Assembly (NCBI GenBank): GCA_964016885.1
Contig: OZ024744.1
Coordinates: 81,654,001-81,718,000, forward strand
Reading direction: 5' to 3'
DNA from: Eledone cirrhosa
Lineage: Eukaryota
Length of the DNA stretch: 64,000 bases
A program made the position numbers and the translations under genes. Every line of letters begins with the position of its first letter. The first letter of the stretch is position 1. Of this stretch, positions 6,530 to 17,761 are shown piece after piece. The notes under the pieces were generated by a model. The model was not told the origin of the DNA, did not search any database, and saw only the letters and a list, made by a program, of their open reading frames with translations.

Positions 6530-6865
6530 ATGAATGTATGTATAGTATATTTGGCAATATACCGTATGTTTAATTAAAAACATTTAGAAGACCATTCTGG
6601 ATTCTTCCAAGACCATGGAAACTGGATTTTTATAGAATTTCATGGAATTCTATAAGAATCCAGCTTTCATGATTTTCGGCGAAAGCAGAGGAGTACGTGG
6701 CTCTGATGAACGCCAATCAGCGTGAAACAGACTGTCAGCTTCTCTCCCTTCTTTCGCCGAAAAGAAGTGATATAGTCACTACTTTAAAACTGATAGCGTA
6801 TGGTCTTCTAAATGTTTTTAATTAAACATACGGTATATTGCCAAATATACTATACATACATTCAT
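6530..6865 (+). mobile_element. ORF-less fold-back element (Penelope pLTR-like) with 66-bp perfect inverted arms enclosing a hammerhead
   Basis: 6530-6595 is the exact reverse complement of 6800-6865; (TA)n tracts on both sides. Confidence 0.75.
6700..6739 (+). ncRNA. Minimal type I hammerhead ribozyme
   Basis: gct-CTGATGA-acgc(caatca)gcgt-GAAA-cag(a)ctg-TC-agc: canonical core with stems I, II and III; predicted cleavage after GUC at 6736. Confidence 0.85.
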
Positions 6866-6911
6866 ATATATATATATATATATATATATATATATATATA
6901 TATATATATAT

Positions 6912-7193
6912 ACGTGGAAAAGTAAGAAATCGGAGAATAGACCGTTAAAACATGTTTATTTAAAACAGCACCTACGTACGTTTCGCCCAGTTGGGCTTCT
7001 CAAGGGTAAAAATAGCTATTTTTGCGAGCAATGAATCTTGACGGGAACTTAAGCCCCAAAACTCTTTCAGAGCAATGTAAGGAACACTTTTGGTTATTTA
7101 TGCCCTTGAGAAGCCCAACTGGGCGAAACGTGCGTGCTGTTTTAAATAAACAATCTTTAACGGTCTATTCTCCGATTTCTTACTTTCCCACGT
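6912..7193. mobile_element. Fold-back element with two outward-pointing U3-A8 hammerhead copies
   Basis: 6912-7016 is an imperfect inverted repeat of 7092-7193; starts at a (TA)n tract. Confidence 0.75.
6970..7007 (-). ncRNA. Type I hammerhead, U3-A8 covariant (mirror copy at 7103-7136 on +, 3' part damaged)
   Basis: Minus strand: accc-TTGAGAA-gccc(aact)gggc-GAAA-cgtacg-TA-ggt; palindromic stem III, short stem I. Confidence 0.7.
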
Positions 7194-7484
7194 GCTTACG
7201 CTCTGCTAACTCTCTAGCCCACTAAATATTAACACTTCGAATATTTAATACTGCCGGCACTAGTATCGAACACCTTTGGCATACGCTACTTGGCAAATAG
7301 CTATACGTATCACCTATCCTCCCTTTTTTTCTCTCTCTCGATACGTAAATACTGTATATATATATATATATATATATATATATATATATATATATATATA
7401 TATATATATATATATATATATATATATATATATATATATTGTATAGTCACGGGTTGACTAAAACCTTGTGAATGATATTAAGTA

Positions 7485-7652
7485 CTGTATTTCCCGGCGT
7501 CAAAGACGCTACCTTTTCCCTAAAATAAGTCTCAAAAATCTATCAACCGTCTTGGAAGCCGAAGGTTGTTTATTATTTTTTCCCAAATTTTTGGTTGTCA
7601 AAATTAGGGTGCGTCCTCAACGACGAAGCGTCTTCGGCGCCGGGAAATACGG
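7485..7652. mobile_element. Tc2/pogo-type MITE with TA TSD
   Basis: TIRs CTGTATTTCCCGGCG...CGCCGGGAAATACGG flanked by TA; a second, inverted copy lies at 46706-46856. Confidence 0.8.
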
Positions 7653-8096
7653 TATATTAGAAATTGTGTAATGTATTGTATATTGTACATTATATGTTTC
7701 TATAAAACTAAGAAATGGTAAAGCAGAAACAGAAACACCAAGAAAAAAAAAAAAATAATTGCGAGATTTTTGTTAGTTTAGAAACAACGGCACCAGAGGG
7801 TCTGGACTAAGATGACTTGGAGGCATAATACTATATAACAATATTTAGTACACATTTCTCTTTTTACTTACAGAGAACTAATTGAAATTAAACTAATAGG
7901 AAACACCAACAACAAAAAAATAAGTTGTTGGCGTAGTTATCTATAAGTACTATATATATATATATATATTTATTTATGTTAATACTTAACGAACATTTTC
8001 GTAATTGGTAGACTGTGAATATGCATACGGCAGCATAAATGCACATAGTTACACCCCCCACACACACAGACACACAGACACACAGACACACACACA

Positions 8097-8346
8097 CACA
8101 CATATATATAACATGCGTTTGTGCGTGTATGTATATGTATATAAATGTCCTTTATGCATGTACGTATATATATCTATGTACTCGGCTTCGTTCCGAAGCT
8201 ATATATATATATATATATATATATATATATATATATATAACTACGGAACGAAGCCGAGTACATAGATATATATACGTACATGCATAAAAGATATATACAT
8301 TTATATACATATACATAAACACACAAACGCATGTTATATATATGTG
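8097..8346. repeat. ~100-bp inverted repeat with a (TA)n spacer
   Basis: 8097-8195 (...gtactcggcttcgttccg) mirrors 8245-8346 (cggaacgaagccgagtac...). Confidence 0.85.
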
Positions 8347-8679
8347 AGTGTCTGTGTATATGTGTGTGTGTAATTGTATACCTAATTGTATATGGTTGAC
8401 GGTATATTTAGTCGATTTCCACGTGCTGTTGAAATGTTGGGTAAATATTCTATGGCGGTCGGCCGCGAAGAGATTGCTGACGTTTATTTATCTTATATTT
8501 CTTTATAGGTGCCTTTTAATCTTATAGCCTGGTCTAATTGATTTTTTTATGTGGTTGATTATGCTAATTGGGAGAGGAAATGGTGTATATATATTATCAA
8601 ATGATTCTCTGGACATACTTTATAGTATATATATATATATATTTATATATATTATATATATATATATAGTAAAAATAAT

Positions 8680-16027: not shown

Positions 16028-16180
16028 GTAGAAGTACTAACATAACAGTTAGTTCACCATACCGAGAACAATTGTTTCACCTTATGCGGATCTTCAGCTC
16101 GGACTCCAAGCTGAAGATCCGCATAAGGTGAAACAATTGTTCTCGGTATGGTGAACTAACTGTTGTGTTACTACTTCTAC
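16028..16180. mobile_element. Fold-back element with head-to-head hammerheads (16062-16102 minus, 16106-16146 plus)
   Basis: 70-bp inverted arms; ccgag-CTGAAGA-tcc(gcataa)ggt-GAAA-caattg-TT-ctcgg with 5-bp stem I. Confidence 0.8.
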
Positions 16181-16202
16181 ATAAATATATATATATATAA
16201 TA

Positions 16203-16570
16203 CAAGTAGAAGCTTAGTAAAATCGAAGCTTTGGCTGTGACCAAGCAAAGTCGACCTATAATAAGGAATGAGTAGCAAAGCACTCAATAAGGGGAGGTCC
16301 TTAGAGTAATAACATTACGTTTAAATAGCTTGACAAATTGAAAATTGCGGCAGGCAAAACCCAACCATACAATACCAAAACAACGAAAGAACTAATCAGG
16401 TTAAAACAACAGACCTGGACAGATCGAACGATATTCTGCAATACGTCCGATATGTTTCTATGAATCCGAAATCATCTATCCAACTTACGTAACACTTAAG
16501 CTTGTGGTATTCCATGATCGAACAGGGGACTCACTTCACCGACAGGCATTTCGTTCTTTTGCCTCAAACG
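16203..16570. repeat. Unclassified dispersed repeat (second copy ~50657-51000; head duplicated at 16808-16876)
   Basis: Shared blocks aatcgaagct, aagcactcaataagg, ccttagagtaataacattacgttt, gatcgaacag. Confidence 0.65.
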
Positions 16571-16944
16571 GGTGTGAACTTTAACTCAATGTTACCGCCA
16601 CAATAGACAGCCTTCAATGATTTCGTTGTCACGTGTTATTTCCAGCAAGGGATAAATTCAAAATGTTAACAAAGGAAAATGATTCCACTCAACATTCCGA
16701 ATAAAAGCTCTCAACTACATGTTATTAAACAAACACAAATAATTAACCAATCAACAGAATTGTCTAATTAAATTAATTAATTAATTATTATGTCTAGGAG
16801 ATAATAATACAAGTGGAAGCTTAGTAAAATCGAAGCTTTGTCTGTGGCCAAGCAAAGCCGACCTACAATAAGGAATATATATATATATAATTCGTTTTTG
16901 AATTTGTTTTCCGAAATTTCTTATCTAAAAACGTGTGTTGAAAC

Positions 16945-17352
16945 AATATCGTTATACTTTGGGAGGGTCATGTTGCCAATCAAAACACACGCACCTTATA
17001 GTTTTCACTTCAGTTTATTATAAATTTCCAGTTGGCTGGTTGGTTGGTTCGGTAACCGGAAGGTTGTTTATATATTGTCAAAGCTCTTTCGTCACACATT
17101 CTGCGACCTCCTCAGTGACTAGGTTTTATTTTGTGTCACTCCTTTGTTCTGTCCTACACAAGATGGTGTAGGACAGAACACAGGAGAGACAGAATGTGTG
17201 ACGAAAGAGGTTTAACTATATATAAACAACCTTCCGGTTATCGAACCAACCAACCAACCAACCAACCGGAAATTTATAATAACTTGAAGAGAAAACAAAC
17301 AGGTGCGTGTGTTTTTATTGGCATCATGACCCACCCAAAGTATAACAATATA
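16945..17352. mobile_element. ~400-bp fold-back element with a hammerhead in the left arm
   Basis: 16945-17159 mirrors 17166-17352 with indels; ends in (TA)n. Confidence 0.75.
17077..17119 (-). ncRNA. Type I hammerhead
   Basis: Minus strand: gtca-CTGAGGA-g-gtcgca(gaatg)tgtgac-GAAA-gagc-TT-tgac. Confidence 0.75.
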
Positions 17353-17466
17353 TATATATATATATATATATATATATATATATATATATATATATATATA
17401 TATATATATATAATAGTGAAAGAGTGAAGAATAACATGGTCAACAGTACTAAAACGGTTTTATTTA

Positions 17467-17580
17467 CAGTATTAACAATTGTTTCATTGATTAGGTATGC
17501 CTAAAGGCCGCTTATCACTCAAACTTGTGCCACCCGACCTTAAATACAGTGTATGCCTAATCAAATCATCGGAATCACTG
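17467..17580 (-). ncRNA. Type I hammerhead variant (U4C) with long stem II insert, flanked by a 27-bp inverted repeat (17410-17436 / 17579-17605)
   Basis: Minus strand: cagtgatt-CCGATGA-t-ttgattagg...cctaatcaa-t-GAAA-caattg-TT-aatactg. Confidence 0.7.
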
Positions 17581-17761
17581 TTACTCTTCACTCTTTCACT
17601 ATTATTACTCCAAGAATGACCTGCATAGGAATTCCCGGGAACTCGCCACCTAACTAAGGAGACTTCTTGTTGAGTCAAACAACGCCGTACGTTAAAACTA
17701 TCCACAATACAGAGTACTCACAACCTCTAACTGGATTACCTATAATGATAATTTGTTACCC

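Follow-up and report, generated by a model that had tools for sequence, protein, structure and literature searches.

The window analyzed here comprises 64,000 nt of the Eledone cirrhosa genome (GCA_964016885.1, contig OZ024744.1, positions 81,654,001–81,718,000, forward strand), and all coordinates below refer to it. A cluster of insertions spans 6493–17764, i.e., about 11 kb, rather than the 6530–17605 given in an initial annotation of this DNA. Within the cluster we located eight mutually unrelated elements with hammerhead ribozyme (HHR) type motifs, E1–E8, and assigned their cores, which bears out the earlier count of at least eight unrelated HHR-bearing sequences in 11 kb; the core positions listed at that time do fall on cores but mostly mark the other end of the motif. 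As also described before, (TA)n adjoins every end of E1–E8, and most elements, namely seven of the eight, carry an inverted copy on their 5' side, E5 being the exception. The ribozymes had moreover been said to point outward, which applies to E2, E4 and E6 only; the inverted arms of E1, E3, E7 and E8 have no HHR core. Each family terminates at two fixed sites, A and B, 30–167 nt apart.

E1 (6493–6865, + strand) belongs to an ORF-less retrozyme family with a monomer of 312–317 nt. Its direct arm (6643–6865) ends at site A and its inverted arm (6493–6595) at site B, with a small inverted duplication at 6596–6642; the core at 6703 (+) has its predicted cleavage after 6736. E2 (6912–7355, +) is the 3' end of a coding Hydra-type Penelope-like element (PLE), with the direct arm ending at B (7355), the inverted arm at A (6912) and U3-A8 cores at 7106 (+), with a deletion at the cleavage site, and at 7003 (−). 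E9 (8669–11214, −), overlooked previously, is a 5'-truncated coding Hydra-type PLE with a reverse transcriptase (RT) fragment (10399–11214), an interrupted endonuclease region (about 9690–10305) and a 3' UTR; it bears an HHR-like motif with a CAGAAGA core at 8824 (−) and terminates at (TA)n. E3 (11449–12207, −) is a young ORF-less retrozyme with a monomer of 594/595 nt, whose direct arm (12165–11449, 1.2 units) ends at B and whose inverted arm (12166–12207) ends at A. Its U3-A8 core at 11773 (−) has a long stem II insertion and predicted cleavage after 11694.

E4 (12236–12622, +) represents the 3' terminus of a coding PLE of Hydra type that has an AT-rich 3' UTR of about 1.45 kb. Its cores lie at 12447 (+) and 12334 (−); its direct arm ends at B and its inverted arm at A. 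E5 (12666–13071, −), from an ORF-less retrozyme family with a monomer of 474–494 nt, consists of a single arm ending at A, with a core at 12816 (−) and a long stem II loop. A degraded PLE end, 72% to E4, lies at 15029–15306 (+), with a mutated core and a terminus at (TA)n. E6 (15967–16180, −), another 3' terminus of a coding PLE of Hydra type, has a complete core at 16097 (−) and one with stem I cut at 16111 (+), and here too the direct arm ends at B and the inverted arm at A. The junctions of E4 and E6 in the window are near-palindromic. E7 (16889–17351, −) is the 3' end of a coding Neptune-type PLE with a minimal HHR at 17115 (−) and an inverted arm ending at A. The coding Hydra-type PLE 3' end E8 (17410–17764, −) has a direct arm (17578–17410) ending at A and an inverted arm (17579–17764), mostly a 161-nt tail, ending at B; its CCGATGA core at 17572 (−) has a long stem II insertion.

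A strict type I HHR descriptor, a check suggested with the initial annotation, recovered seven of the eleven cores, all within 6703–17572, and matched neither the other 53 kb of the window nor the reversed or complemented window. It failed on both E2 cores, on E7 and on the truncated + copy of E6. The E2 cores were missed because stem I is weak, the + copy being in addition deleted at the cleavage site, and E7 because an extra base precedes stem II. We conclude that the predicted HHRs are real as sequence and structure motifs, because reversed-sequence controls contained no HHR motif and stem II covaries. An Rfam search of the whole window (E ≤ 10) gave 247 matches; of the 150 that were listed, none was to a hammerhead family, and the top ones were sub-threshold miRNA models on fold-backs. 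The repeat search of the window was dominated by a pentamer satellite.

By their sequences, E2, E4, E6, E7 and E8 are 5'-truncated 3' ends of coding PLEs, longer copies of which enter an RT/GIY-YIG ORF. PLE ORF matches lay upstream on the same strand in 13 of 30 loci for E2, four of 30 each for E6 and E8, three of 30 for E7 and, in a second search, 12 of 30 for E4. One candidate had been E4 as an ORF-less family; the 760 nt ORF-free upstream stretch turned out to be its inverted arm. In the Hydra-type set (E2, E4, E6, E8 and E9, assigned to this clade by motifs), tblastn and frame reading gave an RT followed by a C-terminal GIY-YIG-type endonuclease; these elements have an HHR near the 3' end and insert into (TA)n. 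A CxCX5C linker without CCHH was present in the natural frames of loci L241, L328, L248 and L251 and of window positions 9913–10305, and RWK and DKT motifs were seen in the N-terminal RT region of E2 (locus L034). In about 12 of 30 copies, direct ends of E6 adjoin (CT)n instead. The E7 endonuclease has a CX2-5CxxC linker plus CCHH (frames of loci L197 and L200), and its Neptune-type label, likewise given by motifs, does not separate Neptune from Nematis. Pfam gave no family above cut-off for six of six PLE fragments; among their atlas look-alikes, HTH_animal occurred in 27–94% of members and GIY-YIG in 48% of one set. The description as ORF-less fits the window copies of E1–E8, but not the five families with coding PLEs nor E9, a PLE copy with ORF remains.

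The genomic copies of E1, E3 and E5 identify these as ORF-less head-to-tail monomers (about 315, 594 and 485 nt), i.e., as non-LTR retrozymes. Upstream of the HHR, their loci contain the family's own 3' end. Direct repeats were found at 312–317 nt in eight of 30 loci for E1, at 474–494 nt in seven of 30 for E5 and at 594–596 nt in 20 of 30 for E3, where they represent 23 distinct insertions, with up to about 1.3–1.6 units in E1 and E5 and up to about 7.5 in E3. Longest stop-to-stop frames are 52, 87 and 94 codons and GC contents 38, 42 and 37% for E1, E3 and E5, respectively. Their HHR cores are conserved across copies, and the descriptor matched once per unit in two E3 arrays (L275 and L317). 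E3 is young, with thousands of near-identical HHR copies. The three monomers had no match (E < 1e-4) among coding-PLE ends of loci L001–L319, a small sample, and their minimum-energy circular folds lacked the complete HHR fold. In one of four sequence runs (X5), a single contig closes on itself at E3 monomer length, which fits a circle or tandem DNA alike. At one E1 locus (L007), a PLE fragment lies on the same strand 1.2 kb upstream, past the inverted arm. Among the sampled loci, copies extending into a PLE ORF thus occur for five families and not for E1, E3 and E5, and each of the two origins first offered, truncated PLEs or non-autonomous ribozyme elements, covers part of the cluster.

Two-armed insertions use one site per end. 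This holds for seven of seven in the window and for E3 in 12 of 13 insertions of a first set and 19 of 19 further ones (13 checked in loci, six from the match table only), i.e., 31 of 32. The corresponding counts are 9 of 9 for E8, 9 of 10 for E5 and 8 of 12 for E1; the pooled first set gave p = 9e-7 (Fisher), and E1 taken singly p = 0.52. Sites were called by eye from script tables. Each search covered the best 40 candidates, a choice biased toward query-covering copies, and the counts exclude four E5 copies with ambiguous calls, a duplicate and an E3 copy with an N gap. E2, E4, E6 and E7 were left out of the test because the query biased their direct end to B; in three of 15 E2 copies, both ends lie at B.

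The 5' truncation points of the two arms are unrelated: across 26 arm pairs, neither their differences (KS p = 0.11) nor their phases (KS p = 0.72) deviated from a uniform distribution. Arms of one insertion are more alike than other copies: they differ at 14 of 4577 positions (0.3%) compared with about 0.8% to other insertions, and the arm-to-arm value was the lower one in 11 of 12 cases. The units are not fixed-length fold-backs: 5' ends fall at random points, and the inverted arm represents another copy with a truncation of its own. Targeting to (TA)n, in contrast, found support, with ends in (TA)n and with 45 of 55 HHR matches followed by (TA)n within the next 300 nt downstream, versus 24% of random places. 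In contigs from another run, both E3 sites occur as loose ends leading into (TA)n, and AT matches of 0–4 bases to the target are frequent at insertion ends.

We consider it likely that the region consists of separate (TA)n insertions of five PLE 3' ends and three retrozyme families, made by a Penelope-type RT/GIY-YIG enzyme with dual-end priming. The family make-up, five coding PLE ends and three ORF-less retrozymes, we hold with high confidence; priming from both target ends is probable. The PLE endonuclease would nick both strands of (TA)n, one target end would prime at A while B would serve the other, with both sites probably on a single RNA or on RNAs of one source locus, and each cDNA would halt at a random point before the two are joined head-to-head via a few matching bases. 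Genomic evidence suggests that the retrozymes, too, were likely inserted de novo by the PLE machinery, probably with priming from both cut target strands.

Inverted arms might instead stem from a single nucleic acid strand that primes itself or folds back, an origin proposed for head-to-head Penelope structures (PMC3846280). The near-palindromic E4 and E6 junctions would fit, as would five of 26 E3 junctions that are nearly symmetric (≤30 nt). However, junction phases are otherwise uniform, the inverted arm often has sequence missing in the direct arm (the E8 tail, or B-ended opposite A-ended arms), and either arm can be the longer one; we regard this origin as unlikely. It is distinctly improbable that the ORF-less arrays are immobile satellites grown in place from a solo pLTR via unequal crossover or slippage, a route discussed in a preprint (bioRxiv 10.64898/2026.07.22.740005). 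Units within an arm do diverge little and one array was triplicated as a block (L377–L379), but arrays are scattered over many contigs, have fractional copy numbers, start at random 5' points yet stop at fixed 3' ends in (TA)n, and frequently have a second multimeric reverse arm, e.g., about 6.7 + 7.5 units at C1:193445663–193454133. We give very little credence to all eight elements being coding-PLE ends with full-length parents unsampled: this is true of five, and only 30 loci were sampled per search, but whenever an E1, E3 or E5 copy exceeds one unit, it continues into its own sequence, and none of 60 fetched E3 loci runs on into a PLE ORF on the same strand. That all eight are a radiation of MITE-like fold-back ribozyme elements, fixed in length and non-autonomous, can practically be dismissed. 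The window copies are indeed short and ORF-less with inverted repeats at their bounds, but five families reach RT/GIY-YIG ORFs, and the fixed terminal inverted repeats of MITE or foldback elements were not found in every copy, arms being variable in length or absent and ends lying at different sites.

Under dual-end priming by PLE machinery, the E3 template would be a circle or an uncut multimer, because sites A and B lie about 80 and 245 nt beyond the predicted cleavage site and yet the arms span several units. Monomers fit for circularisation would be released from precursor RNA by the HHR. Tentatively, and with more doubt than conviction, we suggest that E3 may be a currently active circular-RNA parasite, where a PLE RT-endonuclease dimer engages the ribozyme-made circle at two fixed sites and primes both (TA)n strands, and where both polymerases roll round the circle to yield head-to-head multimers. 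If so, inverted pLTRs and tails of PLEs would generally arise from the rule of one site per end, and the hammerhead load of this genome would be among the densest known.

Direct counting gave at least 77,000 HHR motifs in the genome. A tile extrapolation to 1.7–3.9e5 was discarded because it over-predicted two counted patterns 1.5- and 4.5-fold, and only the direct count is firm. Compared with seven matches in the 11-kb region, 49 fixed-coordinate 10-kb tiles held 44 (mean 0.90, variance 1.9, maximum 6; negative-binomial P(≥7) = 0.007). The clustering behind the former term hot spot is therefore real but not rare: the region, picked after the fact, lies in the upper tail with about 1% of 10-kb tiles and is ordinary for this genome.

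The Hydra-type elements resemble Hydra-clade PLEs (Craig et al. 2021, PMC8557442) in the C-terminal endonuclease, the CxCX5C linker and the lack of CCHH (E2, E4, E6, E8, E9), in RWK and DKT (E2), the position of the HHR close to the 3' end, insertion into (TA)n, the inverted 5'-truncated copy and a tail often at one end only. They differ in tails of 60–167 nt compared with 30–40 nt, in the long stem II insertion of E8, in U4C and U4A core variants, and in being far more abundant than the 'small number' of families outside cnidarians. The minimal HHRs described for PLEs of metazoans (Cervera & de la Pena 2014, PMC4209133) share the palindromic stem III, the U3-A8 core covariation, the extra base before stem II (E7) and opposite-strand pairs 100–700 bp apart, there ascribed to truncated PLEs; their numbers, obtained with different descriptors, are 2,000–9,000 per genome compared with at least 77,000 here.

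Animal non-LTR retrozymes (Cervera & de la Pena 2020, PMC7229834; Li, Clavereau & Pollet 2026, bioRxiv 10.64898/2026.07.22.740005) likewise consist of non-coding monomers arrayed head-to-tail, each with a single type I HHR; they have GC below 45% and unit lengths of 51–972 bp, a range that includes ours, and co-occur with PLEs. In contrast to the sections consulted, where insertion ends are not analyzed, the ends described here bear PLE marks, i.e., two fixed sites, one per end, an inverted arm and (TA)n; pLTR homology of E1, E3 and E5 to a partner PLE was not found among the sampled loci, and our ribozymes are predicted from sequence. In the preprint, only one of nine predicted retrozyme dimers cleaved. 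The literature consulted calls both the integration route of animal retrozymes and the origin of head-to-head PLE copies with a one-end tail open, and the young, ORF-less E3 provides insertion-level evidence for de novo retrozyme insertion by PLE machinery.

Frangieh et al. (2024, PMC11167929) studied Poseidon PAc, a PLE protein of Anolis, in vitro: both strands are cut and extended, and reverse transcription begins at two internal sites. As in our families, these sites bracket the tail, the target is AT-rich and the tail belongs to the start of the next unit; the E2 copy L034 continues from site B into the ORF start. In contrast to the in vitro reaction, where no strand difference in start site was seen, the two ends of an insertion here nearly always differ, also in ORF-less elements, and the short AT matches to the target are common. 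Our prediction of two sites, one per target end, is within reach of the existing in vitro PLE assay.

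Eight mutually unrelated elements of the hammerhead ribozyme (HHR) type, E1 to E8, lie between 6493 and 17764, in agreement with the initial annotation, which had claimed at least eight such elements here. A strict type I descriptor, one of the checks proposed there, detected 7 of the 11 cores in the window and had no match on the reversed or complemented window or on 59 reversed 10-kb genome tiles. Cores are canonical C3-G8 in E1, E4, E5, E6 and E7, U3-A8 in E2 and E3 and CCGATGA in E8, with stem III short or palindromic in all. For covariation, we aligned 15 E4-like motifs from different families: in stem II, 97% of cells were paired and both-sided changes occurred at 8 of 9 pairs, and the covariation score was equalled by none of 500 shuffles, a result that leans towards structure because the sequences were picked with a pairing descriptor. 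Stem II of all 15 motifs has a C.C or C.U mismatch in which one C never varies (alignment column 21; window position 12457), possibly a tertiary contact. No hammerhead was among the 150 of 247 matches listed from an Rfam search of the window. We conclude that the HHR motifs of the region are real, of mixed origin and of known kinds.

The region had also been called a hot spot. Forty-nine fixed-coordinate tiles of the 3.0-Gb assembly held 44 strict matches (0–6 per tile) and ten neighbouring tiles 11. The region stands roughly in the upper 1% of the tile distribution, which is overdispersed; the cluster is real but not rare. Counted exactly across the genome, an E4-type pattern occurs 70,199 times and an E3 30-mer 6,794 times, with 0 for the controls. 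Against these, tile extrapolation was 1.5- and 4.5-fold too high; we therefore put the genome total at at least 77,000 motifs, plausibly 1–2.5 × 10^5; for axolotl, the available text of PMC7229834 gives 126,247 type I motifs. At least 12 further HHR families occurred in 590 kb of tiles (L261–L319), several with 30–77-nt stem II insertions.

Copies of each family were traced genome-wide, as had been proposed (1,100–3,900 first-look candidates per family, 40 scored, 30 loci retrieved). Five families extend to ORFs of Penelope-like elements (PLEs) and three wrap on themselves. The description as ORF-less hence applies to the E1, E3 and E5 families, where no long reading frame was found, but for E2, E4, E6, E7 and E8 to the window copies only; likewise, truncated PLEs and non-autonomous ribozyme elements, the two readings offered, each fit one of these groups. 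E1 wraps into its own sequence at 312–317 nt (8/30 loci), E3 at 594–596 nt (20/30) and E5 at 474–494 nt (7/30). E3 copies are 97–100% identical, in arrays of up to ~7.5 units. E5 relatives at L189, L243, L023 and L258 (74–80% identity over the full monomer length) are, judged by sequence, a second, older retrozyme subfamily.

Copies of E2, E6, E7 and E8 extend upstream variably, some into PLE ORF remains on the same strand (13, 4, 3 and 4 of 30 loci, respectively); E4 has a 3' UTR of ~1.45 kb, and a second search for it gave 30 loci, 12 of which extend as far as the ORF. In several E8 copies (L217–L219, L230, L234, L236, L237 and L239) the 5' truncation point lies no more than ~10 nt before the HHR core, which may reflect RT stalling or query bias. 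Two elements were absent from the initial annotation, a degraded E4-like end (15029–15306) and E9, a coding PLE copy (8669–11214, minus strand). By motif assignment, not trees, E2, E4, E6, E8 and E9 fit the Hydra definition as given in the available text of PMC8557442: CxCX5C is present and CCHH absent, and E2 has RWK and DKT motifs. E7 has CX4CxxC plus CCHH. In the HHR-like motif of E9 (core at 8824), the conserved core reads CAGAAGA (U4A), stem II starts with a U.U at its base, and stem III is 4 bp long with a loop of 9 nt, a combination that standard descriptors would overlook. The E9 family is abundant (matches at 11 places in 49 tiles), with further pieces at 59065–59243 and 59644–59768.

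Another PLE, with RT and GIY-YIG and CCHH-type motifs (53316–54547, minus), has a minimal HHR ~600 nt downstream at 52719 (minus); an additional HHR candidate lies at 63048 (minus). Degraded LINE-type RT fragments (Pfam RVT_1) occupy 13072–15020 and 59875–61706 (both plus), and E5 directly adjoins the former. A small fold-back at 8151–8289, with a central (TA)20 and arms of ~45 nt, is arranged oppositely to the HHR elements and had one weak match among the loci compared. Large pentamer-based satellites (TGTAC-like; 2.3–3.3 kb each) lie in opposite orientations at 22557–25852 and 47894–50221. Overall, the repeats of this animal DNA may be of the kind found in cephalopods.

Every family has two fixed 3' end sites, A and B, which lie about 30 nt apart in E1, 57 in E7, 60 in E6, 90 in E4, about 110 in E5, 161 in E8, 165 in E3 and 167 in E2. 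(TA)n, which the units had been said to abut, adjoins both ends, and 0–4 bases match the target in the window copies. At site B, about 12 of the 30 copies of E6 (L152–L180) run into (CT)n instead of (TA)n. Two-armed insertions, i.e., a direct and an inverted copy, used a different site at each end in 12/13 and then 19/19 cases for E3, 9/9 for E8, 9/10 for E5 and 8/12 for E1, the last not significant alone. The first set as a whole gave p=9e-7, and the retrozymes by themselves p=1.5e-4. These counts exclude loci that duplicate a single array, an E3 copy with an N gap and four E5 copies with ambiguous ends. E2 (12/15), E7 (8/8 arms that reach the terminus; three stop short), E4 and E6 broadly agree and were kept outside the test because their queries were biased. 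Arms are mostly joined head-to-head with 1–9 bases overlapping (exceptions: one 13-nt gap, two complex junctions), in unrelated phases, and arms of one insertion are more alike than either is to other copies.

A PLE protein studied in PMC11167929 can cut AT-rich DNA on both strands and extend each of them, and its RT starts at two internal RNA sites bracketing the tail. Each target end would then prime at one RNA site, and the two cDNAs would be truncated independently and then joined. Self-priming has been proposed to make inverted arms (PMC3846280); it predicts symmetric junctions, and few junctions were symmetric. Fixed ends in (TA)n plus reverse multimeric arms are not what satellites growing locally would yield. 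The E3 template would have to cross the predicted cleavage site more than once, and would be either a circle or an uncut multimer. Any hairpin transcript of E2, E4 or E6 would probably mask the HHR that it carries.

Already described for PLEs are 5'-truncated copies in inverted orientation, tails on one side and a bias towards (TA)n (PMC8557442, PMC3846280), as are opposite-strand HHR pairs and U3-A8 (PMC4209133). Retrozymes have been proposed to be PLE-dependent elements (PMC7229834; 10.64898/2026.07.22.740005), and Chlamys elements that are non-autonomous and multicopy have been described too (PMC8557442). The open-access literature, in the parts available, yielded no count of one-site-per-end usage, no report of tails longer than 40 nt and no analysis of retrozyme insertion ends. 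Related families could already be within the supplements of PMC8557442 (family and HHR lists) or of 10.64898/2026.07.22.740005. The useful addition to these known systems is an insertion rule common to coding and ORF-less families.
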